Of a stretch of 64,000 nucleotides of DNA, positions 29,489 to 60,015 are shown piece after piece (position 1 is the first letter of the stretch; every line of letters starts with the position of its first letter). The stretch covers positions 514,805 through 578,804 of the forward strand of contig WELA01002297.1 of the NCBI GenBank assembly GCA_009602735.1. Direction: 5' to 3'. The notes under the pieces are model-generated. The model worked only from the letters and a program-made list of their open reading frames with translations. It was not told the origin of the DNA and made no database searches. A program made the translations under genes and the position numbers. This DNA is from Mesotaenium endlicherianum. Its lineage: Eukaryota.

Positions 29489-29528
<40 letters not shown>

Positions 29529-32407: not shown

Positions 32408-33123
32408 TGAAATGAATCGACTTACCAGTGGGTAATTAACAATTAATAAAATATCTTTATGTCTGCAAGTAATCTTCATGGTAATTTTTGTTAAGTGGTT
32501 AAACAAAAAAGACAACGAATTAGCGATACACAATACTCATATTCAAATGCAAGTATACGAGCATCAATCATGCAATCGATAAACTCATACATAAGCAAGG
32601 TTCGAAGACAGTTCACGTCAATGGCTTCTCGTCTTGGATTCAGATTTCTTTCAGTAAGCTGTACAAGAGAGTTGGCCTTGTTTCCAAATACCTAACTCAA
32701 GAGCAATACCTAGCATATGTACATGGAATGATTTTACTGTTCAACAGCAAGTGCGATGGCACCGCCTACCCGGGAGTTAACCACGTTGGTAGGACCTCGG
32801 CTTACCAAATCCACCACCATCTCCCATCATCCCGAAGAGCCATCCATCCTAGAAATGTTCTCTGGCCCTTCATCTAGCATATCACACTTAGATGCATGAC
32901 TAGGTGGTTCGCTGCTACCGAGTACGGAAGTCAGCTGGCTGACAATGGATGTGTCAGCAAGCCGACCAAAGTTGACTTCAGCCTGCTGCTCTCGGCTGAG
33001 TCATTAACTTGATCAATTATATAACTCCAAGAGAATTAGTATTAACTATAGTCCAGCAGGCTGAACTTAATTATCTACTGTATCTAAATGAATATTTATC
33101 TACCAAGATACTGATTTATTACA
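32408..33123 (-). repeat. 5' LTR of F1 copy 2
   Basis: TGAAATGAAT...TTATTACA; homologous to 4376-5075. Confidence 0.9.
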
Positions 33124-35260
33124 CATGTATGTAGCATTTCAATTGGAAGAAGCTATCTAAATATTTTGCTTCTTGCCGTTTTGCCTAGCCACAGTCCCTC
33201 ATGTCTTCGTTAGGATCTTGAAAGAAACTGGTGAGGATGTGGAGAGGGGATGAAATTACGATTCTTTCCTACTTAGATGACTTCCTGATTTGTTGTAGCT
33301 CTATTGCGCAGCACACTACCTCACAAGCTTCGATCCGCCAAGGTTTCCATGGAGCAAATTTGTATTGTCAACGCACAAAAAGTTGTTTTGGATCAGACCC
33401 AAGTCCTGAAATTTCTAGGTATCATAATTTACTCTAGAAACCTAACCGTTCACGTAGAAAACTCTAGCTTCTATAGAGTCTTAGTCACCTCAAAGATGCC
33501 CTGTCCACAAAAAGACTAGTCAATGTAAAAAAGATAACAAGACAGATGGTTTCCATGAGAATCACATTTAGGGATATCACTAGGTTATTTTCCAGAGTCT
33601 TGTTTACTTGCATGGCAGGAATAAAATATTGGTCAATTGAAGTGAAGCTCTTACCTCAAGTAGCAGAAGAACTGGGCTTCTAGGAATCCTCCTTCAATAA
33701 GTTTAATGGAGGACATCTCATGACTATGTTGTGTCCTGATTATCTTTTGCAAACAATCTTCTTCAAGGGCAGTTGGGCTGTAAGGTCACAAGAATGTAGA
33801 GTGCATTTTTGTGGTCATTCTGATATAGAATTTGTCAAATTTGGTTGAGTATTGAGAAAGTAATGAATTTCTGAAGTTTTAATAGTTTCAAGGTTGGTCG
33901 ACGACTATCTTTAATTCGCGGTAAGCACGATCTTCGGATTGACCGACAGCGTCGAGCGATCTGGGCCGTTAGAGTGAATTCAAACCTTCACGTAATTTTG
34001 GCTAACGCATAGTGCTGACCAGGTCGATTTACCTAGAAGTTTCGGATTAGCCTAGCGCGTCTAAGTTAGTATATTCTAGATATTTCGATGCATATATGTG
34101 GATGTCAAATCAACCTGACACGTTGGATGAGGCTGATCTGGCCTACTCACAAATATTCTAGAAGGGACAATTTGACAAACACTTAGGAAATTTCATTGGT
34201 AAGCGGCCCTCCCTCGTAGAGGCGAGCGGTCGTTGTAGAACACTAAAAATATAAATAGGCATAACTTCTTTGTTTCTCATCAATATTTATTTCTGTAAAG
34301 TTTTACGAGTTTGCAATGACGACGCCTTTCTTTCAATGTCATTTAAAAGCACTTTCTTGCTACTCAAAATGTTGAATATTTTTTCTAAGCTTTCTTAGTG
34401 ACATGCCGCTATACTCTTTAGTATGATTGCAACTAGTTTAGTTCCTCGCTACGCTTCCACTAAGGCACTCTGCCCCTTTCATGGGCAGCTTACCTCAAGG
34501 AGTTCTCCACTGCAAGACAGTGGGAGCTTACGAGTCCTCCTACCCCAGACCTCCAGCCCAGATCAGAAACACCATGGCAGCCCTCACTGCACCAGCTCAG
34601 ATTGTTAAAGGTTCTCAAGTCCTGATTAGGACTTATAGCTGGGCATTATACAAAATTTTAAAATTAGGAAGTTCTAGGAAGCCTCAGGTGCTTGATACTT
34701 GCAAAGAGGTCTTCTCTCTCACAATGGCTCATCAAATAGCACTACAGATTGAATGTATAGAGAGTTGCATGGACACAGCTATTAGGAGTCAGTCCCAAGC
34801 CTTGGATATGGATGAATCATGACTTCACTTTACACATAAACTCTTTTCAACTTGCTACAGATCACCTGGGGGCCTCACACTATTGATAAATTTGCCTCTC
34901 CCCATAATAGCCAACTGGATAGGTACAATGCAAGATGGCTGTGTCCTTCAACGGAAGCCCTAAATCCTTTACAAAAAACTGGAAAGGAGAAGTGAAATAT
35001 TGTTTCCCACCTCTCCAGCTTATATATGAAGTGGCCAAACACACCCTGAAGTGCCAGTCTGCCTGTACCCTTCTTCTCCCACTGTGGAAAGCTGCTACTT
35101 GATGGTCTAGGTTACTGAGCAGCCCACATCACTTGGCCCCTTTTGTCACTAGGTACCTGTACTTAGGCTACAATACACAGGTATTGAGACCAGGAGCTAA
35201 CAAGAGAGCTTTTGGAGGAAAAGGCATTCTCTTGTGCTCTATGCTAGCTCTGAGAGTCAA
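33124..35260 (+). pseudogene. Decayed DIRS-like retrotransposon pol (RT, RNase H, adenine-methyltransferase-like domain)
   Basis: Fragments LPFxLATVPHVF...ILSYLDDFLI...LKFLGII; RNase H-like KGSQVLIRT...GSSRK; then WGPHTIDKFAS...CFPP...LLPLWKAA. No tyrosine recombinase seen. Confidence 0.7.
33779..34481. mobile_element. Solo LTR (703 bp), TSD TGGGC
   Basis: TGTAAGG...CCTTTCA with TGGGC on both sides; homologous to 63006-63740. Confidence 0.88.
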
Positions 35261-35625
35261 TAGCATGGTGCCTAAGCAGAGGCTTAGATTGCCAATCATC
35301 TTGCCTCGAGGGAGATGGAGAGAGGAAGTCTGGAGATGGCATTTCAAATGATGGCTCCATCAACCTCGAAGACTTACAACACGTACTAGAGGCGTTTCCA
35401 AGAATGCTGCACACGGATGAAGGTATAAAACCTCCCTGCATCTGTTCCTACAGCTAGATTGTACTTGCTACACCTCTTGCAGGAAAGAGTCAGCATTTGA
35501 ACCTACTGCCTATTTATCTATCTGTGCCTAATTCTTATTATGTCTCTTTATGCTATATCTAATTCTGTATCTCTCATTAGTCTACTTTGTGACTTCCCTC
35601 AGTTCTAAATATTTTTTCGGCCATC

Positions 35626-36572
35626 TGTCGCGACTGCTATCCACTTGACAGTGCCGCACGCGCAACGCAAGTCACGGCCGTCCAGGTACGGAAAGTCAGC
35701 GTTGACGCACCAACCAAAAGACTGAGTTATCTCAGTCGGCGGTTATGTCAAAGTCGTTATCACTGTCAAAGTGGTCACGACACGTCAAACCCCATACCCA
35801 GGGATGTTGCAGAGGCGTTGCGTGCCACCTCGGTTAAGAGCCTCGAGTGACTAGCCACAGCTTGAGCGTTCATCTCAAACGCTGCCAGCCGCCAGCCACA
35901 TAGGCGTGATTGCCAGCTGAAACACTAAGCAGTCACGTGCGACAATCACAAGGCGTGCATGCATGCTGAGTGACAACTTCTAAAGTTGTTTGAGGGCTGT
36001 TAGGTAAGGACGGCATGCAAGCTAGGCGCTGTGACTAAGCACTGGCATTCTTGAGAGAGGATAATGTGTGGTGCCTGCAAAAGGCACTAATCTTGCCTGA
36101 AGCTGTCTCATTCTTGCTTGCATTATTGTCAAGGAAGCTGAAGGAGCAGGTACAGAAGAAAAGGAGAAGAAGGAGCGCAAAGAAGAAGGAGTTCCCAAGG
36201 CCACAGAAGAGCCGAGACGCCACGCTTCTGCCGATGCGGGAAGCTTTCTTCTCAATGTATCATAGAAAGGTCAGACCTCAGAAATTTCCAAGAGAGGATC
36301 TCGCTGGTAGAAAGTAGAGAGCTGCAAAATAGAATTTGTCAGGAGATTAGCACAGATTCGGGTCAAACGCCACAAGCGTGCGAAAGTCACTTAAAACAAT
36401 GAGTGCTGTGTTAGTTTCCAAGTTCTCAGAAGTCTCAATTGTCGAATTGCTGATAGCAAGAGTAGCATTAACAAGTAAAGCTCTTAGTGAAGAATTGAGT
36501 GAGCCTAGCCAAGCAATGAAGAATTGTTAAGGCGCGATGTTGAGCGAAGAGCTCAGACCAGGCCAGCATAGA
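35626..36572 (+). repeat. D2 repeat A1 (3' part and gag N-terminus apparently deleted)
   Basis: Matches 51329-~52398 except for a segment of about 125 bp that is missing. Confidence 0.92.
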
Positions 36573-36699
36573 GTTACATACATGTGACATGAGAGCATCT
36601 CGACATGTAACCCTCTTGCTAAGCACGCCAACACTGTTGAAACAGCTGAGGGCTGTTGAAATTGCAAGAAATCAGGACATTAGAAGAGAGATTGTCCGT

Positions 36700-37821
36700 A
36701 CCCGGATGCTAAGCAACTATCTGCGAGCAAGGCGCAGATATGCGCACATTGCAACAAGAAGGGGCACTCAGAAGATGAGTGCTGGTCTAAGAACCCAGAT
36801 TTAAAGCCGCCACGGGCAAATGCTGGCACGAAAGAGGCAGACAAGGAGAAAAAGAAAGAAAAGGGTGGCTCTGGTAACCGCAAGGGTAACCAGAAGTATG
36901 ACGCTATGAGTGCAAAAATCACTGAGTTGAAAGCTCAATCTGCGAAACTAAATGTGCCTAATGTCCACTATGATGCAGATGTTGCAGAAAAGACCGTCTG
37001 CAAAGGCGAGAAACTGATGCCTGAAAAGGCTGTGGGTGCAACGGCTGCCGAGCGAGCAGATCACGACTGTCTGGTGCCAAGGAATGCTGGGAAGTTTCCT
37101 CAGACTTTCCAGATTATTCTGGATGAAGATGAGATCTCGCAACTGCGACAAGCCAAGGCTGGGACGCGTAAGACATTTAGTTTTTCGCTGGAGAAGCTGA
37201 AGGCCCTGGTGGAACATCGGATCCAGCATGCTCCTTCGCTTTCTCTTGTTGATTTGCATATCACATACCTGTTCACGATTGAAAAAGTTGGACATATAGC
37301 TGAGGAGGGTGCGAACAGCGCTCATTGCCGACCAACTTCAGCACCGTGAGAGTGCAAAATAGGGATGGTGTACTAATATTCAACAATTGGGCAGCACCAA
37401 CATTCTGTTGGATACGGGCGCACAGCTAATCATCCTGGGAAAGCGAGCTGTGAAAGCTCTAGGATGGACAGCAAGGGACCTGAAAGAGAGTTCTTTCCAG
37501 TTAAGAACTGCCTCAAGGCAAGTCTCAAAGTCTTGTGGGATTACTCACAAGCCTGTGAAAATTACAGTAAATTCAGGAAAACCTAAAGAGGCGTCACTAC
37601 TCATGGAGTGCACAGTGACAGAGGCAGAGAACTATGATGTTCTCTTGGGAACAGAAGCGCTGATTCCCTTGGGTATGGTCATTGATTTGCAGAAGCCAGA
37701 ATCCTACGATAACATCATGAAGCGCGACGAGGAAAGCTATACGAGCATCAACATGCCAACACCCTTGGTATGGCAACCTCGGATTATGGAGCAACTCGAA
37801 ACTGTGAGTAACAGTGACTGA
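36700..37821 (+). pseudogene. D2 gag C-terminus and protease
   Basis: Knuckle CAHCNKKGHSEDEC at about 36741-36782; LLDTGAQ in ORF 37387-37821. Confidence 0.8.
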
Positions 37822-37939
37822 GGCTCACAAGAGCTGCTGCCAGTACCCTACCCAGTTACCTCTGCTGCAAACCTGATGCCTGGAGTCGAGCCGCTGCCGC
37901 AAGGCACATTGTCAGGATGGGAGATCCTTTTCGCAAAAA

Positions 37940-38915
37940 GGGACTAGCGGTGTTGGAATTGTTTGCCGAACTTGGGTCTGGGACCATAGCATTGATCCAA
38001 CGAGGGATACAGGTGGCCAAAGTCCTGTATGTGGACAATGATAACCACGCTTTTCTAGCATTCAGAGAAGTCATGAGTCAGATGCTGAAAGGGGCAGACC
38101 TTACAGATGCAGCAAATGCATCACTTTGAGGGGTTGGTGTCCGCATACACCAATGTTGAGCGCATCGCTGGAGGCAACATTATTAATGTGAAGCCTGAAG
38201 CCCTGTATAGCTATAGGATTGACTGGATCTTTGCTGGATTTCCTTGTCAACCGTTCTCTCAAGCTGGGAACAGGAGGGGATTCAGTGATCCACGAGCACA
38301 ACACTGGAGATGGATGGTGATAATCATCAGCATGCTGCGGGAACGTCAGCACTATCACCCACCAATGTTTGTGATTGAGAACGTGCATCCAGGAATGGAT
38401 TACCAGCAGATGAAGCCGAGAGAGCCATGACTGATTCTCGACTCCACCTTGGGTCATCATGTGCTAATCAACGACGCCAAGCACGGAGGATTATCCCATA
38501 GGGCTAGAATATTTTGGATAAACGGCATGTCTATTGAGGTCCTGAGAGAGATGGAGGACCTTACGCGGCGATCACCGACGGCATTGACAGTGGAAGAGGC
38601 GCTGGCGGTACGTACCACGCCAGTGACCAGGAGGGATTCCTACCACAGTGCGTCATCAATGAACCAGGTCAGCCAAGGGCAGTACTGCCTACCTTTACAG
38701 CGTATCCAGGATCCCAAGCCTTCATAGGAGGAAGACCAGGAATGGTCAAAGACATGCATGAAAGAGACGCCGTTTGGAGAGAGCCTACTGCGGTGGAGAA
38801 GGGAAACTGCCTTGGAATATCTGACACCATAGCTTGGCAGATAGTCGGTGTTGTAGGGTCAGATGAAGCTGCAAAGATTTTCGGCAACATGATTGGACAG
38901 TACTCTATGACTTGG
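37940..38915 (+). pseudogene. D2 C5 cytosine methyltransferase domain (frameshifted)
   Basis: VLELFAELGSG (I), LYVD (II), IDWIFAGFPCQPFSQAG (IV), FVIENV (VI), HRARIFW (VIII), REPTAVEK...IFGN (IX/X). Confidence 0.9.
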
Positions 38916-41299
38916 CTGGTGGAGACAATCATGACGTGGCAGCAGTTGACCTTCACCGACAAGCCTATGCCGAGGCCAAGACCAGTGACAATTGGGGTCA
39001 ATGTGGTGCCAACATCTGACCAGAGGGCTATCAGGAACGCACATCAGCAACAAGAAGAATACGGTGTGCGAAGAGACGCAGCGGCAGCTGCCAGAGACAG
39101 AGCATTCAGGGAAGCTGAAGTAGTTGAACTGATGAGATGCCAGGATCTGTTGGACCAGATTGATAATCGGACCGCTGAATTACAAGCACCTCTGGAAAGA
39201 GAGGATACACCTTATGAGAGACCAGGCGCTTGAGCAGACGACGCCGTTGCCAAGCGCAGCAGACGATATGCAGAACACCCCGTCATCCTTGAGAAACGCC
39301 ACTCGCAGTTTGATATTTGGGAGTCCCTCTCCCGAAGCCACGACATCAAGGCGTGAGAAGACTTCAAAATATGCCAGATCAGGGTATGATACCAACCTCA
39401 GCCCAAGAGCAACTGGACGCGGAAACTACTGGCAGGACAGCTCAAGTAGCTGGGAAGCTAACCAAAAGTGTCTATCGTCTTCACCAGAGCAAGTACCGTT
39501 ACAAGATATGTCAGAGGAGTCTGAGAAGAAGACCCCTGGGCCAACACCTGAAGATTTTGAATACTATCTAAAACCAAGCACCAGTGCAAGAACGCCGGTG
39601 CAATATTGGTGAAGGGCCAAGATGGGCGTCTGAAGAGTACCTGAGTAGGACCCCTGAAGAGTCCTATAATACCTGCAGAGCATCCGTCGGAGAACGCAAT
39701 ATTGGTGAATGGGCTGAAGAGAGTAGCCAGAATTCATGAGATTTTGGAGGGTCTGCAAAGACCATATGCCTCAAAGTGATATTCGAAGAACGCAAAGAGG
39801 AGTCGGGCAAGCAATTGTCCACAACACCTTCTTTGATGAGCCTAGAGCCGCAGGCTAAGGGGCAACAGCAGGGTTCAGCCAGTCAGACAGCTGAATCCAT
39901 TGCAAGGCAGATCTTGGAGCAGCTACTGGAAGCAGACGCTCGACGGCACAAGGAAGAGGAAGTAGCTAAGGCGGCAAGCACTCTGCAATAAGCCATCGTC
40001 AACCTGGCGAAGCTCAACACAGATAATGATGGAGAGCCACCACCACCTGCAGTGGAGAAGTCAGTTGAAGATGAAGCAAAGATGCCAGATCTTCCAAAGT
40101 TTGACCTGCCGTCAGTCACCAATGAAGAGGAGATTCGGGAAGAAATTCCACGATTTCCTACCCCAGAGCTGGACTTGTTGGAGCTACAAGAGCTCAGGAT
40201 GGATGACTGGGTGGCCGACCACTTGATAATGGAGGGGCCCAGCCTGGCAGATCTATACAACAATCTGAGGTCGCCTACATCCAGCACTCCTATTCCCAGT
40301 TTTCCACCAGAAGCTACTCCACATCAACTACAACAGCCGCAGGAAGTGGCTGGCTGCACCGCTAAGATGGAACCAACACAAGGTAATCCTCACGGTTGCG
40401 CAGGCAGACAAAGAAAGGTGGCCCGGGAAGGGAATGCACCTTTCAGGCGGATGCTAATGCGTTATCTCAGGTATAGGGGAGCAGCTCAGAGAGAAGGGGT
40501 TCCGAAAGGAACCATGGCTCCTCCTCCGCAACCTATCCTGGAGATTTTGCAAAGAGAGGGAGAGGATGGCTCGATTCGCGAAGCTATGGCATTGGGAATT
40601 TGCATTCCCATGGTGCGCCCTTCATCCACTGGAACGTGGGAGAAGGATAGCTCAGCTCCTAGGACACCCGCAACTTCTGAAAGGGAACTAGTAGAGCTGG
40701 GAAGTACCAAAAGCCGCTTGACAGCAGAGAATGCTGTATACGCACAACTAGCTGCGGCTCAAATACCGCAAACTTTGACACAAGCATGGGCGGTTACGCC
40801 ACCAGCCAGGGAGGAGTTTGGCACAACCGTTGCGCACATTGCTACCATTGAGCGCGAGTGGGGTTGGACAATCGACCCCAGAGCAGATCCAGCAGAGTGG
40901 CCTTTGCCGAACCCGCCCCCACCACGTGAAGAGGGAGGAACGGGGACCAGCTTGACTACAGCAGATGAAGAAAGGTTCTTCAGGCAGCCCGTCCGGAGGC
41001 GTCTGACATACTCCACTCAACGGGAGAGGCGACGATCCATAGGAAAAGGTAAAAGGCTTAAGAAGCAGGCCGCCGAGCTTAAGTCAGCGGAGGAGCAAGC
41101 TGCGAAGCCTACCACTCCACCGCCTAACAATCAGGCAGAAAAACCTGAAGGTCAGGATGAGGGCAAAAAGCCCCCACCTGAATCCAAAGAGTAGCAACTA
41201 CTGGAAGCCTGTGTTGGGGAAAAGCAGCCAGCAACTGAGATTTTCACTATTGGAAAAATGGTCTCAGCCCAACAGAGAGCACAAATAGAAAGGCTGCTG

Positions 41300-42116
41300 A
41301 AGAAGCACCGCAAGGTGTTTGCTTTCACCAAGGAGGAGATTGGTAGAACCAGTGCCAGTGTGTGTGAGATCACACTAAGTACTGATAACCCAGTTAGACT
41401 TGGGCCGCATAAGCTCAGTTAGACCGAATGGGACTGTGTGGAGAAAACTTGCCAGGAGCTGCACAAGCTCGGCATGATTGAGAAATCAACATCAGTACAT
41501 GGAGCTTCCAGAGTAGTAGTTGCCAAGAAGGACGAGGCTGGCAATTATACAGCCACTCGTATGTGTGGAGACTACGGGCGACTGAATCTCCACACGGAGC
41601 CAGACAGCTACGTGATGCCTACACCAGAGTGGATCTTTGCGATTGCCACCACCGGGAAGGTGTTCAGCATCATCGATCTATGCCAAGGCTTGAACCAGAT
41701 CCCTGTGAAAATAGAAGATTGTATTAAGACCGCTTTCTGGACTCAAAGGGAACTTTGGCAATGGACGATAGTGCCGTTTGGGCTGAAATGCCCCAGCCAT
41801 ATTTCAGAAGACTATGTATAAAGTGCTGGAGGGGCTGACTTTTGCAAATCCATACATTGATGACATAGTGGTGTTCAGCAAGTCCATAGAGGAGCACCTT
41901 GAGCACTTGGAACAAGTGTTCCAGCGCCTGGAGAAATTCCAGATAACGCTGCATCCTGGAAAATGCAGATTCTTTGAGGCACATGGGCCTTACTTAAGAT
42001 ATAGAATTGGGAACAATGCTATGTCCCCACAGCCAGTAAAGGCTGAGGCCATTTACAAGAAACCTGCACCTGCAAATGTGTCCAAGTTGAAAGCTCTATT
42101 AGGGCTGAGCGGATAC
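41300..42116 (+). pseudogene. D2 reverse transcriptase, 5' part
   Basis: RMCGDYGRLN, IIDLCQGLNQIPV, PFGLK, PYIDDIVVFS; cut at LSGY by C2. Confidence 0.9.
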
Positions 42117-42619
42117 TGTAGTGAAACAGATAGATAAAGTACTTAGTAAAACAGAATACTTTATCTATTCAAGACAAGGATCTTTGAACACAAGTGGTAG
42201 CTTCTTGAAAAAGAGATGGCTTCTTGAAAGTTAATATATTTCTGGATTTTGGCAAGTACAAGAGTGATTCTCCCATGTCTTTCTATGTTCTAGCTCTTGT
42301 TTATATACTTGCTACATAAGTAATTTCTAGGAAGGTGTATGTTGATGTGTTGGCACCCAACACATCCCAAAACTTGCCACCTCTTTCTAGAATAATGTAC
42401 ACATGTCCTTTTGACCTAAAAATGGCACATTTGACTTTTGCCACATGGAGTTCTTCTAGGTCTTTCCTCTAACTTCGAAAATGCCTTGGAAGGTTCAAAG
42501 GACATGAACCAAGTTACTAGAGTACCTATTCACACTTGACTCCACACAATACTACTCCAAATATATTTGAAAACATTAAAATATATGCAAACTAATATAT
42601 AATAACTCAAATCACTACA
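42117..42619 (-). repeat. C2 3' LTR
   Basis: About 6 mismatches to the 5' LTR by eye; PPT at 42620-42629. Confidence 0.97.
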
Positions 42620-43388
42620 TCACCCCCCCGATAGAAAAAGCGACGTCTCGGCGCGTCAAGTCAGGTCTTACACATGTGGAGCAAACTAGTCAACAGTTTC
42701 AAGTCAGATGCCACACATGTGAAGAGGACTAGTCAAAGGCGCCAAGTCAGGTGCTACACATGTAAGGTAGACTAGGCAAGGTCGTAGGTGGTGTGACCTT
42801 ATTGGCTAGCCTACTCCTTAATGATAAAGAAAATTGTACAAGTTGGCCCAGAATCTGCCACGAACTCAAAAATTCATAGCGGCCACAGAACTGCTCCAAA
42901 TCTGAAAATTCGAGTGCCAGACGGACCGCGTCGGAGAACTCTACCGGGTCACCAAATTTGAGAGCATTCTCATTTCTGGAGTGTCGTTGAGAGCTGAGAG
43001 AGTAGGCACTCCTCCAAATCTGTGCAGAAACTTCTGAAAATCATAAGTCCTTCTATACTTCTCCAAATTCTGCAAACTAAGTCTCAAACTGGGCGCTGTA
43101 AGATGTTCTACCAGAGTCTTGAGTTTCAGAGCATTCCAAGTTCAGGGGAGGGCACAATGTCAGAAGGCATATTCTGCCCTAACAATGCCAGCAGCCTGAC
43201 CCCCTTCTACTTAGAGCATCATATCTCTCTCACCAGTGCTCCAAATTGAGCAAACTTGGACTCTAAATGACCGGCTACTCATGGACTACAGCCAGGTAAA
43301 TTTTCAGAATTTATTATGCAGAGACCTATTACCAGTAGCAGTTTTAGTTTTCTGTCCAGAAACTGCGAGAAGAGAAGAGTGTCTAATG

Positions 43389-46300
43389 TCAATTTTTCCT
43401 CTTTCTTGTTCTTGCAGGCTGCCTCCAAGGGGTCTTCTGCTGCTTCTTGATGGTGGCAGGCTGCCTCCCTGAAGTCTTCGGGCTTCTAGTAGAGAGACTT
43501 GGGGCTGGTCCAAGATGGGGGTTGGCGGCATGGAAGCGCTTCAACTTTCTCTGAACTTTGTCAAGGTAGTGCGCCGCCACCCAACTATTCTCCGAATCTG
43601 GATATCCTTTCCACTTGATCAAGTATTGCTGCTGTCTCCTGAAATTTCTCATAGCCACTATGTCTTCCACTTCGTACTCCAAATGATCATCCACTATTGT
43701 TGGGGCTGGTGGGGTTGTCACACGTCCTGGGAACTTGTTGTCGGGTTGCACATATGGCTTGAAGAGGGAAGCGTGGAATACGGGGTCGATGTGCATAGTC
43801 TGGGGAAGTTCTAGCTTGAAAGCAACGGGGTTGACTTGCTGGATAATCTTGAAGGGTCCCAAATACTTGGGAGAGAACTTGCTGCCGGCAGGCCTGTTGT
43901 TCAGGGAAATGTTCTTGGATGATAGTAACACGTTGTCACCCACTCTGTACGTAATTTCTCTTCTGGATCTGTTCGCCACTCTTGCTTGAGCATCTTGCGC
44001 GTGTTGTAGAGCTTTCTTCGCTGCTGTAAGGGCTGCTTCTAATGTCTCCATAAAATCTGTGGCTGCAGGTACTTCATCATGGCCAGCCGTGAAGCTCAGT
44101 GGCGTGGTCGGATGGAAGCCATAGTTGAGGAAGAATGGGGACTCTTGGGTAGAGGCCTGCGTAGTGTTGTTGTAGGCAAACTCGAGGGGGGTCAAGTACA
44201 TGTCCCAGTCTTGCTCGAGGGTAGACACGTAGGCCTTTAGAGAGGTCTTTAGGGTACGATTCATACGCTCGGTTTGCCCATCTGATTGTGGGTGGTAGGC
44301 AGTAGACATATCCAGCGATGTACCCAAGTTCTTGAAGAGATTTTTCCAGAAATGGCTTGTGAATCTTGGATCTCTATCTGACACAATTCTTGATGGTAGT
44401 CCATGGAGTCGGAAGATGTTGTCAAAGATGAGTCTTGCAAGTTGTGGTGCTGTAGCCTTAGTCGTCGTGGGAATAAAATGAGCCATCTTGGTAAGTCTGT
44501 CCACCACCGTGAGTATTGCATTATGGCCTCGAGGTGTCACGGGCAAGTCCACGATAAGGTCCATTGAGATGTCCGTCCATTGTCTTTCGGGGATTGGTAG
44601 TGGTTGGAGGAGTCCTCCCGCCTTTTGCGATGATGGCTTGATTCTTTGGCATGTGTCACAGCTCCTGCAGTACTCCTTGACTTGCTTAGACATGCCTGGC
44701 CAACAATAAGTCCTAGCTAGAACGCCCGTGGTCCTTAGGATTCCAAAGTGTCCTCCAAGAGGGTTGTCGTGTGCTTCTCGTAGAAGCAAGAGCCGGAGGT
44801 CTATGTCATTAGGAACACATCTCTGGCCCGTATCTTGCCTCACCCAATAATTGCCTTCTTGCTTCTTGCATGGGTCCAAGGCTGCTTCTCCGTTCTTGTA
44901 GTAAGGGTCTCTTTCATAGGCGGCTGAAAATCGAGCTTCCAGATCTGTCTTCAGGGATACCATCACTGCATTTAATTGCAGTCTTGAGAGGGGGTCAGCC
45001 GGGTTTGTCTTGCCGGGCTGGTACTGAATCGTGATGTTGTATTGTTGCAAGTATCCGCTCCATCTTGCTTGTCTCCTTGAGAGATACGGCTGCGTTTGGA
45101 GGTGCTTTAACGCCTCGTGGTCCGTGGTGACCAGTACTTTGCGTCCTTCAACGTAGCAGCGCCAAACCTTCAAGGCATGTACAATCGCCAATGCCTCTCG
45201 CTCCGTGGTTGTATAATTTTGCTCGGCTGGATTTAGCTTCCTTGACTCGTAGGCGATGGGCTGCAGTCCCTTGCCTTGGTCTTGAAGCAGGATTGCTCCT
45301 ATTGCATAGGAAGATGCATCGGTGATGACGTGGAAGGGCCAATCTGGGTTTGGACTTGGGAGTGTGAGCACCGGGGATGTGGTCAATCTTCGCTTTAACT
45401 CTTGAAATGCCTCTTCCTCTTTCTCGGTCCATGTATATAGCCTGTCCTTCTTGAGTAGATCTGTCAGGGGGGCTGCTATGTGCGAGAAGCCTTGGATGAA
45501 TTTTCTGTACCAATTGGCAAATCCCAAGAATGACTGGAGTTCTTTCTTGGTCGTGGGGGTTGGCCATTCCTCCACCACCGTGGTCTTCTTGGGGTCCATC
45601 TTGATGCCATCAGCAGTCACGTGGAGACCTAGGAACTCCACTTCTTGTTTGGCAAACTCGCACTTTGACTCCTTCGCAAATAGCTTGTTTTGCTTCAATA
45701 CTTCAAGGACTTCTTTCAAGTGTCTCGCATGCTCTTCAAGGGTCTTGCTGTAGATAAGGATGTCATCGATGAATACCACCACAAATCTGTCCAACATGGG
45801 CTGAAATATGGTGTTCATCATAGTCATGAAAGTTGCTGGCGCGTTGGTGAGTCCAAATGGCAGGACCATGAACTCAAAATGTCCATATCTTGTCCTGAAT
45901 GCCGTCTTCTCTATGTCCGGTTCTGCGATGCGAATCTGGTGGTAGCCGCTCCGTAAGTCAATCTTCGTGAAGTACTTGGCTCCAACCAGCCGGTCCATGA
46001 GCTCATCCATGCGCGGCAGCGGGTATCGATTCTTGATGGTGATCTTGTTGAGGGCGCGATAGTCCACACACATCCTCAAGGTACCATCTTTCTTCTTGAC
46101 AAATAGCACCGGGGCTCCAAATGGCGACTTGCTAGGTCGAATGAAGCCATGCTCCAGTAGCTCCTTGATTTGCTTCTTGACTTCGTCTAGCTCCGTGTAT
46201 GACATTTTGAACGTAGGCCGAGAGATGGGCTTGCTTCCGGGCTCCAACTCTATCTTGTGGTCTACGAATCTTTTGGGGGGTAGGCCCTTGGGCAATTCCG

Positions 46301-47054
46301 GGGAGAACACTTCTTTGTAGTCCTCTAAGACTTCTTGTATCTCCTTGGGAACGGGGCTGCCTTCTTGACTCTCGATGTCTTTCTTGATGTCTTTTGGCGT
46401 GATCAAGGCCAAAAGAAGCTCGTGTCCCTTCCTCACAAGTCTCTTGAGTTGGAGGGCGGACAATAGTATCTCGTGTGCCGGCTTCTGGATGTCTTGGGTC
46501 TGGATATTCTGGATTGCGCGCAAAATACAGATTCTTGAAGTGATGTCATTCTTGATCTTGATAGTACCGGTCCTCCAATCAACTTGGGGGTTGTGCTTGG
46601 TCAACCAAGGCGTCCCTAGGATGACGTCGTACTTGCCCAATTGCATGGGGGAGAACACTACTCTATCCTTGAAGGACTTGATAGAGAGTGCCAAGGGGTA
46701 CGTCTTCTTGGAAGGGGTAGTATAGGAGAATCCATCGGGCATCATAATCTCCTCGTCGTGGTCAAGAGTTCGCATAGTAATACCGTGCTTGGTGGCAAAA
46801 TCTGCAGCAATGAAGTTGCCTTGAGCTCCGCTATCCACCAAGATGTGGACCTTCTCTCCTCCAAGGTAACCTCTCAAACTCATTGGGGCTGGAACGTCGT
46901 CTTCAACGGGGGTCTCCACCTCACTTGGCGTGTTGCCTTCTCGTGAAGTGGGTCTTGGGGTGGTAGGCTCCTGGCCTACCGGCGCTGTCCGTTTTTTGAC
47001 AACTTTTTGGGGCATGAAAGTGCACGATGGCCCTTTTCCTTGCAATAAAAGCAT
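43389..47054 (-). CDS. pol: C2 Pol: PR-RT-RNaseH-integrase-chromodomain
   Basis: [42 protein letters not shown] motif, EYEVEDIV...YLIKWKGY...NSW. Confidence 0.97.
46962..46997 (-). promoter_or_regulatory. Putative -1 ribosomal frameshift signal (A AAA AAC plus hairpin)
   Basis: Heptamer 46991-46997 in the gag frame; pol is in the -1 frame; GGTAGGC/GCCTACC stem 10 nt downstream. Conserved in C1 (heptamer 15345-15351). Confidence 0.8.
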
Positions 47055-48256
47055 AGTCCAGCCGTCATGAGAGCTTCTTTTTCAGCCGGGGAGAGTCTTG
47101 CTTTCACTCCTTGCTGGTTTCTTGCATCATAAGTGTCATTGGAGGGTCTTCCACTCTTCCGGGCAGCCGCGGGGTCCCTTTTAATAACTCCGATTTCCAT
47201 GGGTGTGGGTCCAGATTCGGATGTGGAAGGGGCTGCGTACACCCGCGTCGTCGGTACCCGTGAAGATGAAGGCACGGAGTGCTTGAAATCCAAGGTATCC
47301 ACCTTTTGGGCCACTTCAATGATCTTTGAGAAGTCCGTCAAGTCGCGTAACTCCACTTCCTTTGCCACCTTGGGTTTGAGGCCAAAGATGTAGCGGTCAA
47401 TCTTCTCCTCGAGAGACATGTTGGGGATCTCAAGAGTGAGGGCGTGAAATCTGGATGTATACTCTTGAACGGACGTCGTTTGCTTGAGATGGTGGAGCTT
47501 TCCTCGGGCAATCTTCTCCGCATTGATGGGCATGAATTGCTTCTTGAGGGCCTCACGAAAATCTGCCCATCTTGCATATGATGGTGGGGGCTCTTGGCCG
47601 AGCATGGGGTGCGCCATAGCTTGATATATAGCCGCTTGATAGTTACGCCACCATGATGTTGCTGCTCCTCTAAGTAAGGTAACGGCAAAGGGAACGTAGT
47701 CCTCCTCGGGTACTTCAAGGAATGCGAGGTACGTCTCCACTTGGTAGAGCCATAAATTCAGGTTGGCACCTTTCCCGGGGTTGAAAGTGTCGGGTTTGCC
47801 GGGCTTGATGAGTTTCCTTGCTCTCGTTGGCTCTTGTGGAGGCGCTTGAGCCGGGGCTGGATTTTGAGCATTGCTCGCAATAGGGGCAACCATGGCAGCC
47901 ATAGCTTCTCTTGACGCTTGCACGGTTGCTTCATAGGTGGCCAAGCCCACTTGGTTGTGGACGGTCATTAGGAAGGCTGCCCACTCATTTGCGGGAACTC
48001 CTTGTGGTGGGGTCAACTTTGCTATAGCGGCTGCCACGGGATTTGACGGTGCTCCTCCTTGTGGTGCTTCTTGTTGTTGGAGATTTCCTTGAGTAGGCTC
48101 TCCCATCGACGCTGGAGGAGGGTGTGCTCCTCCTTGTGGTGCTTCTTGTTGTTGCAGATTTTCTTGAGTGGGCTCTCCCATCGGCGCTGGAGGAGGGTGT
48201 CTTGGAGAGGAAGGGCTTCCTTCGAAAGCTTGCTGTTGGTCTTGAGGATCGGCCAT
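46976..48256 (-). CDS. gag: C2 Gag with CCHC knuckle
   Basis: 426-aa [36 protein letters not shown]; 25-aa N-terminal tandem duplication. Confidence 0.96.
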
Positions 48257-48280
48257 CTTCTTGTGCTACCAAAGTGCCTA

Positions 48281-48292
48281 GCTCCGATACCA
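48281..48292 (-). promoter_or_regulatory. C2 PBS (tRNA-iMet type, TGGTATCGGAGC)
   Basis: 1 nt from the 5' LTR end. Confidence 0.9.
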
Positions 48293-48293
48293 C

Positions 48294-48796
48294 TGTAGTG
48301 AAACAGATAGATAAAGTACTTAGTAAAACAGAATACTTTATCTATTCAAGACAAGGATCTTTGAACACAAGTGGTAGCTTCTTGAAAGAGAGATGGCTTC
48401 TTGAAAGTTAATATATTTCTGGATTTTGGCAAGTACAAGAGTGATTCTGGAATGTCTTTCTATGTTCTAGCTCTTGTTTATATACTTGCTACATAAGTAA
48501 TTTCTAGGAAGGTGTATGTTGATGTGTTGGCACCCAACACATCCCAAAACTTGCCACCTCTTTCTAGAATAATGTACACATGTCCTTTTGACCTAAAAAT
48601 GGCACATCTGACTTTTGCCACATGGAGTTCTTCTAGGTCTTTCCTCTAACTTCGAAAATGCCTTGGAAGGTTCAAAGGACATGAACCAAGTTACTAGAGT
48701 ACCTATTCACACTTGACTCCACACAATACTACTCCAAATATATTTGAAAACATTAAAATATATGCGAACTAATATATAATAACTCAAATCACTACA
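48294..48796 (-). repeat. C2 5' LTR
   Basis: Direct repeat of 42117-42619. Confidence 0.97.
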
Positions 48797-48801
48797 GATA
48801 C

Positions 48802-50938
48802 TATCGTAAACTTGTGAAGGACTATAGCAAAATTGCTAAATCCTTAACAGAACTTCTGAAAAAGGATTTACCTTTTGTGTGGACGGAAGTCCATGAGAAG
48901 GCCATGAACGAGCTCAAGGAGCGGCTGGTAACGACCTCAGTCTTGCGAACGCCTGACTATTCCAAGCCATTCAATCTACACACTGACTGGAGTTGTGTGG
49001 GAATCGGCGCAGTACTCACTCAGGCCACAAGTCCTAGAGAGGAGTACGTCATTGCTTATGCCTCGCGCTCTAAAAACCGAGCAGAGAGCAACTACTTGTC
49101 CTACGAAGGAAAGCTATTGGCAGTGGTTTGGGCTGTCGCACATTTCAGAGAGTATCTTTTGGGAAGACCCTTCACGCTGATCACAGATCACTCGCTGTTA
49201 CTCTAGCTGATGAAAAATGGAGACCTCACTCGTAAATTGGCTCGCTGGACTCTCAAGCTCCGAGAGTACCAGATGACGGTGATGCATCGAGCAGGTGTAC
49301 TCAACAACGACGCCGATGGACTTAGCACGAACCCAAACCCATCCTCAGACGACAGAACAGGAGCTCGAGAAGAGGAAGATCCGAGCAGCCTAGCAGAATT
49401 GGCAGCCTGCCTGGCCAAAATGGCTAGAATGGTAGCATCAGGTGAAGCTGAGCCTCTACCCCTGTTCATTCCAGAGATTTAGAAAGATCAAGCCACTATG
49501 CACTGGCTGAAGACGAGAGTCCACATGGAGGGATTACTCGTGAAAGAGAAGGACCAGGTGAGCCATCAAGCTAAAAGGTTTTCCTGGAAACGCAATAACC
49601 TCTTCAAGATTGAAGAAACTGGTCAGGAGAAGTTGGTGCCAGAACCCACCAAAAGGCAAGCTCTGGTGCAGGAAATGCACGAGAGTACTGGACACTATTG
49701 TGTCAAGAAGACGTACGATCTTCTGGAGCTGTCTTATTGGTGGAGGGGCATGAAGCAGCAGTGTGAGGAAGATGATCAAGGCCTGCCAAAGCTGTGATCG
49801 CGTCAAGGCTGGTTTTACACAGCAACATCTACACCTGCAATCTCTGCCAATCATGGGCCTAGGCTACCCGTGGAGCTGCGATCTCGCAGGTAAGCTACCG
49901 CTGTCCAAGCGAGGTAACAAGTACATTATGGTCATGATTGAGCATTTCTCTAAGTGGATAGAGGTTGCCCCTCTAACTGCTAAGGAGAGCTTGGGGACCG
50001 CGGAAGCGCTCCTCAACGGTGTGATTGTACGTCATGGAGCTCCAGCAGAAGTGCTGACAGACCAAGGGTGTGAGTTTCAAGGATCTTTTCAGAACCTCTT
50101 GGATAGATGCTTCATCGACCATCGCACTACGTCTAGAGACCACCCGCAAGCAGATGGTCTAGCAAAACGGATGGTGCAAACCATTGAGTCTTCTTTGTGC
50201 AAATTTTGCCTTGAGCATGATAAGCGTAATTGGGATCTCGGTCTGCCATGGCTGGTTATGGGTTACAAATTTAGCAAGCAAGCTGCTTTGGCGAATTACT
50301 CGCCTTATCAGATTCTGTTTGGCAGAAGTCCACTTGTGCCCAGCAGCATCAAGCAGGAGTTTGAGCATGTGAAAGTCCTAGACAACCCTGATGAACTGCT
50401 AAAGGTTATGATACGCCGCAAGGCGTTATTTGAGCGCATGATGCCTGCTGCCTTGGGCAATCTAAAAATGGTGCAGAAAAGAGACACACAGCGTTACGCC
50501 AGGACGCGAGATGGGAGCTACCACCTGCAAATGACGCAGATCCAGGATGGAGACTTTGTCTACCGCAAGCGCCAGACCAAGACCACCATCGACACCAGTT
50601 CAAGTGCAGTGATCTTACGCGTGAAACATGCGTTCGACAATGGTGTGTTGGAACTGGAAGGTTCTGATAGTAAGACCATGAGAGATCACTTGCAGAACTG
50701 CTCGCTGTGCCATATGCCAAATATCGATGCTACGGTTAAGACTGTGCCCAAGGAATTGGTGCCAGCCACGCCTTGTGCCAGCTGCAAAGTGCCGGATGAT
50801 CAAGAAGCAATGGTAACTTGCGATAAGTGTAATGCCCGTTGGCACACCTTCTGCATTGGTGAAGAATAGATTATGGCAGGACGGTGGGAATGTCTTGATT
50901 GCCTTCCTAAAACTCCCAGCCGCAGAGCTCGAAGATAG
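48802..50938 (+). pseudogene. D2 pol 3' part: RNase H-integrase-PHD finger
   Basis: LHTDWS, YEGKLLAVVWAV, HESTGHY...CQSC, WSCDLAG/LTDQG, PHD CASCK...CDKCNARWHTFC...WECLDC. Contains stops and frameshifts. Confidence 0.92.
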
Positions 50939-50985
50939 AAGTTTTCAGCGGCAAGGAAGGGACGCCTCAACTGAAAAGGAGGGGC

Positions 50986-51326
50986 GTAAGGGAAACTGAG
51001 GATAGGCTAACTTTCAAAAAATTTCTACTAAGTGTTGGTAGTGTGGAATAAGGAATTGGTTGAGCATGGGAAGCACTGAGTGTGGGATGCTTCACCGCAT
51101 GATGCAAGTGCAGGAAGACCAGGAATGGGTCAACCCCCAGCTAGTCTGCCGCCGACACACGTGCAAAGGTCGATCAACCCGGTCGATTTCCCACGTGCAG
51201 CAACGCACCGACCTGTCGACCAGGGAATCCCCGTACGCGAGAAGGACCGCCGACACGTTGACGTTGAAGGCACACGTGCTGAGAAGCCACGCACGTGCCA
51301 GGGGTCTGACGCTGTTATGCACAACA
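50986..51326 (+). repeat. D2 repeat B1, after PPT GAAAAGGAGGGG (50973-50984)
   Basis: Matches 52591-52934. Ends GCACAACA, then spacer GC, then TGTCG. Confidence 0.92.
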
Positions 51327-51328
51327 GC

Positions 51329-52590
51329 TGTCGCGACTGCTATCCACTTGACGGTGCCGCACGCGCCGCGCAAGTCACGGCCGCCCAGGTACGGAAAGTC
51401 AGGGTTGACGCACCGACCAAAGGACTGAATTATCTCAGTCAGCGATTATGTCAAAGTCGTTATCATTGTCAAAGTGGTCACGACACGTCGAACCCCACAC
51501 CCAAAGATGGATGGGGATTTGGACGGAGTAGTCAGCCGAAAGGCTAGGGGCCTGGGACCAGCAATGAGCCAGCCCAACAAGTGCCAAGGAAGGTACTGAT
51601 CAATCGGCTATCTAAGCCAAGTACAGCAGGGATGTTGCAGAGGCCTTGTGTGCCACTTCGGCCAAGACCCTCGAGTGATTAGCCACGGCTTGAGCGTTCA
51701 TCTCAAACGCTGCCAGCCGCCAGCCACATAGGCGTAATTGCCAACTGAAAGGCTACGCAGTCACGCGCGACAGTCACAAGGCGTGCATGCACTTTGAGTG
51801 ACAACTTCTAAAGCTGTTTAAGGGCTGCTAGGTAAGGACGGCATACAAGTTAGGGGCTGTGACTAAGCACTGGCATTCTCGAGAGAGGAAAATGTGAGGT
51901 GCCTGCGAAAGGTACGAGTCTTGGCTGAAGCTGCCTCATTCTTGCTCGCATCGTTGTCAAGGACGCCGAAGGAGCAGGTACAAAAGGAAAGGAGAAGAAG
52001 GAGCGCGAAGAAGAAGGAGTTCCCAAGGCCACAGGAGAGCCGAGACGCCACGCTTCTGCCGACGCTGGACGATTTCTTCTCAGTGTATCATAGAAAGGTT
52101 AGACCTTAGGAGTTTCCAAGAGGGGATCTTGCTGGTAGAAAGTAGAGAGCTAAAGAATAGAATCTGTCAAGAGATTAGCACAGATTCGGGTCAAACACCA
52201 CAAGCGTGTGAAAGTCACTTAAAACGGTGAGTGCTGTGTTAGTTTCTAAGTTCTCAGAAGTCTCAATTGTCGAATTGCTGATAGCAAGAGTAGTATTAAC
52301 AAGTAAAGCTCTCAGTAAAGAACTGAGTGAGCCCAGCCAAGCAGTGAAGAACTGTTGGCGCGATGTTGAGCGAAGAGCTTAGACCAGGCCAGCATAGATG
52401 TGCAGTTTCAGAGTTTTGTAAGCTGTGACTTTGTGAAAGTCAAGCAAAAGTCCTGAAGGGCAACTTTCTTTGAATCTGGGATTGCCTGTTAAACTGCTTA
52501 AACGTGATTTCTGCAAACTACAAACTTGTTCATTCTGTAAACCCTCAACTTGGGCAAAGGCCTGCGTGGAAGTAAGACGCTTATGTCCTT
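51329..52590 (+). repeat. D2 repeat A2
   Basis: Starts TGTCGCGACTGC, exactly as the element 5' end at 35626. Confidence 0.92.
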
Positions 52591-52934
52591 GTAAGGGAAA
52601 CTGAGGATAAGCTAACTTTCAAAAATTTCTACTAAGTGTTGGTTGTGTGGAATGAGGAACTGGTTGAGCATGGGAAGCAATGAGTGTGGGATGCTTCACC
52701 GCATGATGCAAGTGCAGGAAGACCAGGAAATGGGTCAACCCCCAGCTAGTCTGTCACCGACACACGTGCAAAGGTCAATCAACGCGGGTGATTCCCCAAG
52801 TGCAATAACGCACCGACCAAGCGACCAGGGAATCTTCGTACGCGAGAAGGACCGCCGACACGTCGACCAGATTGAAGGTTCACGTGCTGAGAAGCCACGC
52901 ACCTGCCAGGGGTCCGACGCTGTTAGGCACGACA
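52591..52934 (+). repeat. D2 repeat B2 (3' terminus)
   Basis: Ends GCACGACA, followed by TSD CATC. Confidence 0.92.
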
Positions 52935-53740
52935 CATCTCGCTATCGTAAATTGTAGAAATGCTTATTGATTTTGATTTGAAGTCTTCACAGCGAGCACA
53001 TGGCCTCCTGTTCCATGGTCTGTCCAAATGCTCTGACTACAAGCGTCGCGATTTTGATACCCTTTCTCGCTTTTGAAATGGACGTTCGTCGACGCCGCAT
53101 GGATGATGACTCCGCAATATGAGAAAGTGTATGTCAAGTCCAGAAAGTTCAGATGACCTCCTGATGGCATTTGCGTTTTGACGTATTCTGTGCACTTTAC
53201 GTCATATTTCGATTCTACACTCAAATGGATAGCAAGCAGCCCGCCAAAAGAAAACCACAAAACGGGTCGAACTACAGAACGACACGTTGTACCGCGAGGT
53301 ACACTTGTGTTAGAGACACTTCCTAGTCAGCACGCAGTACGCTAATAACACCTGCGATTACTTCGCTCCTCATACCGATTACCACTTATACGAGTATCGT
53401 TAGGAGCAATACATACATACCGAAATAGTTGGACCTCAGATGGACGATACACCGTCCGATTAGATTCCCCTTAGACCTGACGACTAGATTCAGATAGTGA
53501 GGAACGCCGCCGCAGACAACCATAGAGACTATCGAAGTTCCTGAGTTGCCTACATAAGACAACTCCCGACCATTGTACATCATTCTATGCTCGGAAATCT
53601 AAGCTCGATTTTGACCGTCATTGTCATTACTTTGCGTCCTTTGCACTTGGGTACAATCGAATAGAATCTGAAACCAGCCCTAAACGATTTTGACGATCTG
53701 GCAAAAGTGGCCATGAAAAGCAATGAAATGTAGCGAACCT

Positions 53741-59206: not shown

Positions 59207-60015
59207 TAGGCAGTTTTTTCCAGTATTATCTTTTGATTGAGTGTACAACGCAGTCTTCTTAAGATGATCTGGTTTTGTTCTGTCGTTTTGTTGCGCTTTG
59301 AAGTGGACTCAGTTGATGGCAGTTATGCATGATATTGTACATTCTTTTTCCGAAGTAGCAAGGTATGTTAAGAGTACGTACACACAGCCACACATTCTAC
59401 GATATCTCCCTCTCGTGATTTCATTCTCATAAGATGGTTGCCACGAGCCGATCCTTCGTGCCAATATTTGGCAATGGAGATTCGAGAATGAAAAGTATGA
59501 AGTAAAGTGCTCCGTGAACTATTTGTTAGTACAATCGTTATCACCATGTATAGTACCACTTCATGAGTTATTGAACACACATCAAAACTATGACTATATG
59601 TGTAAGTTGTGAACCGAGAGGTTATGTCGATTGAGACTTGTCGAGTCTTGCTCACCACATGGGTTGTGGGGACAAAGAAGCATGCGACTTGCACAAAGCA
59701 ACCGGCGGTCTTTTAACTTCTCAACCAACTGAAGGTGGCGCCCACAATTGCTGCCAAGGAGCACGCAAAGACATCATAAGAGGAGTTCAAGTCCTCGGTG
59801 AAGAATCTTACTCTGGAGCTAGTGGTTGTAGGAAAGAAAGTTGTTGGATGCACATGTTGTCTTGCATAAAAGGTCAAGCTTGCTGAAATAATAAATGACT
59901 AAGTGATAAGAGTCTCTTTATAGGCTTTGCGGCAATGATGAAGGATGGTTTGAATGCGGTCGTTGCAATAATGCCATATCATGCGCGCTTCCGCAAATTA
60001 ACAATACCCACAAGT

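Follow-up and report, generated by a model that had tools for sequence, protein, structure and literature searches.

Does a Gypsy-type retrotransposon of Mesotaenium endlicherianum integrate through a palindrome inside its long terminal repeat?

In the textbook view, retrotransposons with long terminal repeats (LTRs) and retroviruses integrate the ends of linear complementary DNA (cDNA), LTR circles being regarded as blind alleys. A stretch of 64,000 nucleotides from Mesotaenium endlicherianum (assembly GCA_009602735.1, contig WELA01002297.1, positions 514,805 to 578,804 of the forward strand; hereafter the window, in whose own numbering all positions are given) raises the question of whether this is always so. 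It contains an element, D2 (35622-52938), that encodes a DDE integrase and whose direct repeats are split in the order A, open reading frames (ORFs), B, A, B. A preliminary description of D2 proposed that a circle of cDNA had been opened at a CA-nn-TG site within one LTR, and stated that no Gypsy lineage was known to do this. From the copies in the window and their relatives, we consider it probable that the DDE integrase cuts an internal palindrome in circularized cDNA and inserts both of the cut ends.

Termini, repeats, and internal palindrome

The boundaries of D2 (plus strand) are as first described. The 5' repeat, A1 (35626-36572), opens with TGTCG, the element closes with CGACA, and CATC stands on both sides (35622-35625 and 52935-52938) as a target-site duplication (TSD). 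The 3' region, read earlier as polypurine tract (PPT), B1, CA-gc-TG, A2, and B2, has exactly that order over 50973-52934. Specifically, the PPT (GAAAAGGAGGGG, 50973-50984) lies immediately 5' of B1 (50985-51326), whose 3' end CACAACA forms the left half of a palindromic attachment (att) site. A two-base spacer, GC (51327-51328), separates it from A2 (51329-52589), which is full length and opens TGTCG, and B2 follows (52590-52934; 3' end CACGACA). The palindrome thus reads CACAACA-GC-TGTCGCG (51320-51335) around a family core, GACAGCTGTC, and A1 opens with its right half, TGTCGCG. The seam between A2 and B2 (52585-52595) would be the junction of two cDNA ends. Identity is nearly the same between A1 and A2 (91.0%) and between B1 and B2 (91.1%), which indicates that the repeats are equal in age.

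D2, now dead, belongs among the KnitGypsy-Dnmt3-like retrotransposons, a group that we discuss below. While the preliminary description had the layout right, it missed both the incompleteness of A1 and a 6.7-kb chromovirus nested in the element. About 125 nt are missing inside A1, along with its final 192 nt (52399-52589 in A2), and the 5' deletion also took the primer-binding site (PBS) as well as about 0.9 kb of 5' gag; the distance from A1 to the first zinc knuckle is 82 nt in D2 versus 1021 nt in D1, the second element of this kind in the window. Because of this damage, D2 alone can neither fix the end of the replicated LTR nor exclude an ordinary 5' LTR (A+B). That gap is settled by D1 and other relatives, in which the PBS comes directly after A.

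D1 (minus strand, 27860-16023) reads A1-PBS-gag...PHD-PPT-B1-CACGACA.AC.TGTCATG-A2-B2-CACGACA and has the domain order of D2. Its A1 (27568-27860) has lost the 5' part and is followed by a PBS (27549-27568) that is complementary to a site in A at 19 of 20 positions, a score reached by 0 of 2000 shuffles. The coding region (17098-27519) specifies gag, protease (PR), cytosine methyltransferase (DNMT), reverse transcriptase (RT), RNase H (RH), integrase (INT), and a PHD finger; the DDE triad is intact, and a 441-nt gap of Ns lies inside. A PPT consisting of a G-run (17089-17097) abuts B1 (16953-17088; 3' end CACGACA), which begins at the first base past the run. After the spacer AC, A2 (16160-16950) opens TGTCATG and contains the self-primer site (16468-16449). 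B2 (16023-16159; 3' end CACGACA) joins A2 in a blunt, precise seam of exact A end and exact B start. The target was the gag of a copy of chromovirus family E. The left end of D1 is lost, so its TSD is not testable. The two elements complement each other, D1 supplying the A1-PBS junction and D2 the TSD. Their integrase pieces are 44-56% identical and their repeats do not align; the layout and the palindrome are common to both. The 5' part of A2 in D1 was at one point read as an insertion, a reading we rejected: the segment is A2, and it is A1 that is truncated. As separate observations, the break at the lost left end of D1 (27860) is no more than a few bases away from where the predicted self-primer has its 3' end. 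A 13-nt templated duplication, TGCCAGGTGTAAG, lies at the join; this may be a cDNA-derived end or chance. The A repeat of D1 also contains, at 27845-27785 and again in A2, about 60 nt of the form GTAAGT...TTTTCAG that resemble a 5' untranslated region intron kept in both copies.

We then considered how widely this structure is shared. An alignment of 33 integrases led to the best 80 of 556 metagenome loci and, with 6 further loci, to a set of 86. The complete A-ORFs-B-A-B layout is found in 9 relatives, 8 of them with a TSD within one mismatch. Among 17 copies with both ends, none has two full LTRs, the ordinary arrangement that the preliminary description had named as the refuting case. A 4-bp TSD is exact in 11 of these 17 and within one mismatch in 15, as against 0 exact and 10 within one mismatch among 272 cross-pairs; lengths of 3, 5, and 6 fail, and only 4 works. 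(The count leaves out L029, L060, L063, and L072, with an end decayed or missing; the ends of L025 and L009 were set by motif.) The duplicated sequences are ATGT, ACCT, TTTA, TGCT, AAGG, ACAA, CCAA, TTTT, GTAT, TACA, AACT, and CATC. Together with D1, the nine full-layout relatives and their TSDs contradict the suspicion that the B-A-B end is an artifact or a chance tandem. The layout is real and lineage-wide.

The palindrome is also conserved. In all 35 relatives with A after B1, two bases separate the CA arm from the TG-type arm (33 by pattern, 2 by eye); in the 33 caught by pattern, duplicates included, the spacer is GC (13), AC (9), GT (6), AT (3), AA (1), or TA (1). We read it as probably an ancestral fixed GC modified by methylation decay, which gives C-to-T products. 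The core conserved across the family is the 10-bp GACA-GC-TGTC, and it persists down to about 40% integrase identity: L083 and L084 (40-41%) carry GTGACA-GC-TGTCAC some 50-60 nt past a G-run. Off its expected place the core occurs once in 1.03 Mb of loci, by chance, and a palindrome upstream of A1 in L029 was set aside as a chance match. In the host, contigs from two DNA runs of one sample (X1 and X2) were aligned to 50700-53300; 67 contigs in X1 and 74 in X2 extend upstream of 51329 with unlike flanks (flank agreement 0.37 and 0.39), which indicates that many host copies begin at the TGTCG of A. Among the sequencing runs listed as containing the stretch, none is recorded as RNA. Reads from two RNA runs numbered 16 and 54, most of them partial matches below 95% identity, and were not used as evidence.

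Some loci deserve separate mention. In L051, about 190 nt past a single-B element, another family is represented by a B-A-B end (3785-4298) that carries the same palindrome and has only a short piece of 3' region ahead of it. In L063 (2849-3385) the 5' end is an inverted A fused to a truncated A, a fold-back rearrangement, and B2 is cut after 14 nt. L081-L086 are eukaryote-type retrotransposons in assemblies titled prokaryote, whose bins are probably contaminated with algal or plant DNA; in L081 the RT-RH-INT-PHD frame (1047 aa) is intact. A scan of viral contigs found no relative.

The coding sequence of D2, all of it decayed, runs from gag zinc knuckles through protease, C5 methyltransferase, RT, RNase H, and integrase to the PHD finger. 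The gag remnant (36654-36782) consists of two CCHC knuckles. It is followed by an aspartic protease (37363-37818; Pfam gag-asp_proteas, E 1e-6) and by a methyltransferase domain at about 37950-38950, broken by stops and frameshifts, with a C5 cytosine methyltransferase piece at 38089-38427 (Pfam DNA_methylase, E 1.4e-14). The RT (41423-42116; Pfam RVT_1) is frameshifted and split by the nested element. RNase H (48799-49203; Pfam RT_RNaseH_2, E 7e-34) precedes an integrase (49483-50869) with an HHCC zinc finger, a DDE core, and the C-terminal PHD finger. In the D2 copy the third acidic residue of the triad is K (E-to-K); the triad is intact in D1 and L081. These Pfam domains bear out the earlier assignment of an HHCC/DDE integrase and no recombinase: no tyrosine recombinase was matched at E 0.01 among 128 ORFs (at least 80 aa, both strands) of D2 and the complete relatives L013, L023, and L050, nor any recombinase among the 7 main ORFs scanned in D1. 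Pfam DNA_methylase lies inside pol in D2, D1, L013, L023, and L050, and the att arms (51320-51335 and relatives) contain CG and CHG sites; the element's own methyltransferase could mark or block one att copy. Between methyltransferase and RT, D2 has an open 400-aa Pro/Glu-rich frame (39992-41194) with no Pfam match; D1 has long linkers of low complexity, placed elsewhere.

Replicated LTR, seam, and product forms

In the relatives, the complementarity of the PBS to A is matched by at most 5 of 500 shuffles in 14 of 21 cases, and the site has the same position in 19 of 21. In the main family the self-primer site lies about 25-30 nt past a TATA-like box in A. No transfer RNA (tRNA) gene was found in the 64,000-nt window. 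The junction of A1 with the PBS is uniform in 18 of 18 copies and that of the PPT with B1 in 24 of 24. The PBS after A and the PPT before B make B+A the likely replicated LTR, as the preliminary description had proposed; the evidence comes from D1 and the relatives, the PBS of D2 being deleted. An earlier version, in which B+A kept relic TGTAAG...CTTACA termini, was dropped when the B of relatives proved to start with ATAC, AGTT, CACT, or TATT.

The seam between A2 and B2 behaves differently from these junctions. It is precise in 13 of 23 copies and variant in 10 (L034, an apparent orthologue of L022, is left out), and the variants are scattered over the tree. Four have lost a shared AT (microhomology), two have one-base losses, three carry an extra G or T that matches the PPT or PBS, and one has a large deletion. 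A seam that varies while the A1-PBS and PPT-B1 junctions stay constant is unlike a junction carried on RNA. Such variation would be expected if cDNA ends were end-joined anew for each insertion. Retroviral circle junctions show end-joining variation of this kind.

There is also a second form of insertion. The largest family, 6 duplicates aside, has 24 copies whose 3' end is B-A-B and 30 that have a single B there (A-ORFs-B). Both forms have TSDs: 6 exact, 2 near, and 1 without among B-A-B copies, and 5 exact, 2 near, and 1 without among 8 single-B copies. In a tree that leaves out 26 of the 86 loci (other families, or too short or truncated) and 6 near-identical duplicates, the tip medians are 0.069 for A-ORFs-B and 0.058 for B-A-B (p 0.21); over three age bins, from the youngest, B-A-B and B copies stand at 11:11, 6:11, and 6:8. 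With a divergence like that of B-A-B copies, A-ORFs-B copies are not young repeats that collapsed, and we rejected assembly collapse as their source. The form fits a 1-LTR circle that may have been opened at the palindrome.

The two forms share an asymmetry. In 21 loci (20 insertions) with A1 in view, B stands before A1 in none, so that the mirror form, A-B-A-ORFs-B, is missing; the B-A 3' end is seen in 11 loci versus 0 for the mirror (0.5 to the power 11, about 0.0005). Integrase use appears to be limited to the 5' (PBS-proximal) site. A 2-LTR circle has two identical sites, so the absence of the mirror form requires an extra bias toward the 5' one. Only A-ORFs-B-A-B has the R region at both transcript ends, and selection would therefore favor such a bias. 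Our guess at its cause is that, once the second strand transfer has taken place, the PBS-proximal site becomes duplex first, long before plus-strand synthesis reaches the other site.

Integration from a circle and its alternatives

The mechanism we propose begins with transcription inside A1. The 5' end of this RNA would prime reverse transcription by pairing with the complementary PBS after A. Ordinary LTR reverse transcription, its ends set by the PPT and PBS at the boundaries described above, would then yield cDNA of the form B-GC-A...B-GC-A, without a TG...CA signal at its ends. The blunt ends would be joined imprecisely into a 2-LTR circle, leaving the variable seam; alternatively, a 1-LTR circle would form. 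The core GACA-GC-TGTC can be viewed as a pair of retroviral CA ends that are joined tail to tail and have in common the dinucleotide ordinarily cleaved off by integrase. Nicked once past each CA, it would yield two processed ends, and their concerted transfer with a 4-bp stagger would leave the termini and TSDs that are seen. The chemistry would be ordinary 3' processing of two ends with a common terminal dinucleotide. A 2-LTR circle opened at the PBS-proximal site, toward which the counts show a bias, would give A-ORFs-B-A-B, the sole form able to replicate again, and a 1-LTR circle would give A-ORFs-B, a dead end.

Several observations weigh against this account. A model of retroviral integration from circles is said to have been put forward by Panganiban and Temin in 1984. 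The 1984 proposal of a circle precursor for retroviruses was not substantiated (PMC1180852; here and below, statements on cited papers refer to the accessible parts of each). The steps are all read from decayed copies, the circle, the cDNA, and the enzyme activity among them. Moreover, the opening of a circle at an internal CA-nn-TG, as first suggested, gains from the conserved palindrome, the variable seam, the 4-bp TSD, and the 1-LTR-type second form, but a plain 2-LTR circle predicts A-B-A-ORFs-B and A-ORFs-B-A-B in equal numbers, and the former is unseen. In the window, D2 lacks its own PBS and D1 its left end, and in the host the right terminus is not among the loose contig ends listed for 50700-53300. 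Most of the relatives are one family from short-read metagenome assemblies rather than independent lineages. The test for self-priming fails in two of the 21 relatives and gives a weak result in another five; L001 and L009, 2 of the 17 copies, have no TSD; and L083 and L084 have no second B within the contig. Divergence of A and of B is unequal in 1 of 9 copies (L025, p 0.04), and a copy's own A1 and A2, and likewise its own B1 and B2, are nearest to each other in only 6 of 8 each. Finally, L017 and L081 read B-A-PBS with no B2, for which collapsed assembly is the simplest reading.

An argument can be made that the palindrome is used without a free closed circle. Linear cDNA could be inserted through its 5' site and the loose blunt ends joined afterwards by host repair, or RT could jump to the end of B once it had finished that of U5. 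A-ORFs-B would come from a linear molecule whose 5' A end was paired with its 3' B end. This is the main rival. It would give the same products with the same variable seam, and a plus-strand jump, being one-directional, would explain why A-B-A-ORFs-B is missing. Yet nothing in the sequence favors it over a circle, insertion before end-joining would be a chromosome break held by protein alone, and the seams are perfectly blunt in 13 of 23 copies, as from ligation; we regard it as unlikely. Replication in the style of DIRS, PAT, and Ngaro elements would produce the identical layout (PMC5890265) and is inherently one-directional. In that case RNA would run from A1 to B2, the B-A junction would template the circle junction, the seam would be inherited, and an integrase would have replaced the tyrosine recombinase. 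A PBS exactly at the end of A and a PPT exactly at the start of B are features of LTR-type priming, however, and RNA-templated junctions are constant, whereas the seam differs from copy to copy with its variants scattered over the tree. We consider this route very improbable.

Other explanations concern the copies rather than their replication. If the family had ordinary A+B LTRs, D2 could be a one-off rearrangement, a tandem insertion, or an assembly artifact that had lost its 5' B, and the 5' deletion does span the place where B could have stood. We give this practically no credence: A leads directly to the PBS and gag in D1 and 21 relatives, the full layout with its TSDs recurs as counted above (9 relatives, 8 within one mismatch), and the repeats of D2, at 9% divergence, are not collapsed reads. 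For the second form only, A-ORFs-B might derive from A-ORFs-B-A-B copies in which B1 later recombined with B2, so that A-B was lost. B1 and B2 are repeats of about 180 nt lying 300 nt apart, and B-only copies trend slightly older in the age bins. The trend is not significant, though, half of the youngest bin is already B-only, and the few extra copies in flanks include no solo A-B, a weak point. We take this origin seriously but doubt it, and integration of circles through the palindrome remains our preferred account of both forms.

Relation to known elements and implications

By protein ancestry, and not by structure, the element is Gypsy-type. The closest solved relatives of its integrase are those of Ty3 and foamy virus, Ty3 being the best (E 2e-21), and the D2 integrase is 47-48% identical to Klebsormidium nitens proteins. 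In a pol tree rooted on chromovirus E, the sole characterized reference included, ORF pieces of D1 and D2 share a clade with proteins of K. nitens, Closterium, and liverworts (support 0.92), within which their placement is weak (0.69-0.78). Named protein relatives come from Closterium, Marchantia, Calypogeia, Riccia, Tetrabaena, and Tetraselmis. In protein P0224, a pol relative at greater distance, a PHD finger and an adenine methyltransferase of Dam type (PF05869) take the place of the cytosine methyltransferase.

The claim that no such Gypsy lineage had been described holds in part. De Mendoza et al. (2018) reported KnitGypsy-Dnmt3 in K. nitens only, and the legend of their Fig. 4c describes DIRS-like repeats (A-coding-B-A-B) with Gypsy-type domains (PMC5890265). 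The repeat layout is therefore already in print, in one legend and without a mechanism; in the accessible text and three supplement files of that account we found neither a mechanism nor a second form, and no data on termini, TSD, palindrome, PBS, or seam (PMC5890265). Like D1 and D2, KnitGypsy-Dnmt3 combines a Gypsy-type gag-pol, a cytosine methyltransferase in pol, and DIRS-like repeats, and on these characters and the pol grouping we file our element with a KnitGypsy-Dnmt3-like group, as far as sequence can place it; KFL_009030040 was assumed from its domains to be the published element. Within the literature searched, the name KnitGypsy was found only in PMC5890265, and integration through an internal site was not found described; Repbase, theses, and most subscription journals lay outside this search. 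As far as could be searched, the internal palindromic att site, self-priming, seam variation, second form, and asymmetry are undescribed. A streptophyte Gypsy-DNMT3 has been named, its repeat structure not given (10.64898/2026.05.21.726589), and Gypsy-7a_cRei of Chlamydomonas has a PHD finger and near-equal left and right LTRs (10.1101/2022.06.16.496473).

The element shares with canonical Ty3/Gypsy retrotransposons the order PR-RT-RH-INT, an HHCC/DDE integrase, a PBS after the 5' repeat, a PPT before the 3' repeat, a short TSD (4 bp, within 4-6 bp), and TG...CA at the insert ends. It differs in that inserts lack two full flanking LTRs and the TG...CA signal lies inside the replicated repeat. 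A PBS complementary to a site in the element's own RNA is the signature of Tf1-type self-priming, and the self-complementary PBS is a likeness to Tf1/Tj1 and Tcn1 (PMC4600332, PMC6317226). Tcn1 is a chromovirus with a C-terminal chromodomain, where our elements have a PHD finger; a chromodomain is found only in the nested E. The preference of Phygy for NCGN targets (PMC6317226) is not matched by the variable TSDs seen here. Split direct repeats in the order A-ORFs-B-A-B are shared with PAT/TOC1, Ngaro, and SymbioDIRS (PMC5890265), from which our element differs in having no tyrosine recombinase match and in the presence of a DDE integrase, 4-bp TSD, PBS, and PPT. Insertion of those elements is also thought to pass through a circle.

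The integrases of HIV and foamy virus are reported to cut palindromic 2-LTR circle junctions (PMC1905944, PMC1180852, PMC4372172). A DDE integrase that cuts a CA...TG palindrome in circular cDNA to give processed ends would be a close parallel. In those viruses, what is palindromic is the seam between the LTRs, a normal provirus results, and the pathway is minor or disputed, whereas here the palindrome is template-encoded inside the LTR, apart from the seam, and apparently the sole route. In the copy-out-paste-in transposition of IS3, IS30, IS21, and IS256, a DDE enzyme inserts a circle via abutted ends with a 2-3 nt spacer. The likeness to IS3 and IS30 drawn in the preliminary description extends to the abutted CA-nn-TG ends and stops at the spacer. 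IS3-like circles are DNA transposons whose enzyme makes the junction itself and whose spacer derives from the donor flank, while here the spacer is a fixed, inherited GC and the circle is inferred from termini, seam, and two product forms.

The rest of the window is a nest of retrotransposons. The chromovirus E copy inside the RT of D2 (minus strand, 42117-48796; 6.7 kb) is a younger, separate element with ordinary TG...CA LTRs (98.8% identical), a 5-bp TSD (GATAC), and a chromodomain, and serves as an internal control. It appears intact, with a 1230-aa pol frame, and we take its PBS to be of the tRNA-Met type. An older E copy (10485-16024) is the one whose gag received D1. A third remnant of the D1 family (minus strand, 5079 to about 8400), comprising the RT start and methyltransferase region, is 70-77% identical to D1 and is cut at 5079 by a chromovirus LTR. 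Three decayed copies of Gypsy family C, with further nested repeats, occupy 1167-5076, 27861-33124, and 60000-62742. At about 54770-59200 lies a GC-rich host gene with introns, the exons of which, by eye, read like a glycosyltransferase.

The layout itself is not new, and the D2 copy is dead. Nevertheless, we lean toward the view that an old LTR lineage of green plants (streptophyte algae, liverworts, and probably chlorophytes) moved its integrase site from the cDNA ends into the LTR, so that only circular cDNA is integrated, via a palindrome of 10-16 bp. No earlier integrase of the retroviral type would have had circles as its obligate precursor, and of two identical sites this one would choose that which leads to a replication-competent copy. 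If this is true, a natural circle-integrating lineage would allow the 1984 question to be tested directly, a single enzyme and a short site being enough, and the integrase may be able to insert any circular donor that carries a 10-16 bp site. Search tools that rely on paired LTRs would presumably miss such elements. More generally, ordinary LTR replication could then generate split direct repeats with no need of a recombinase, and this would bear on the origin of the layout of PAT and Ngaro elements.

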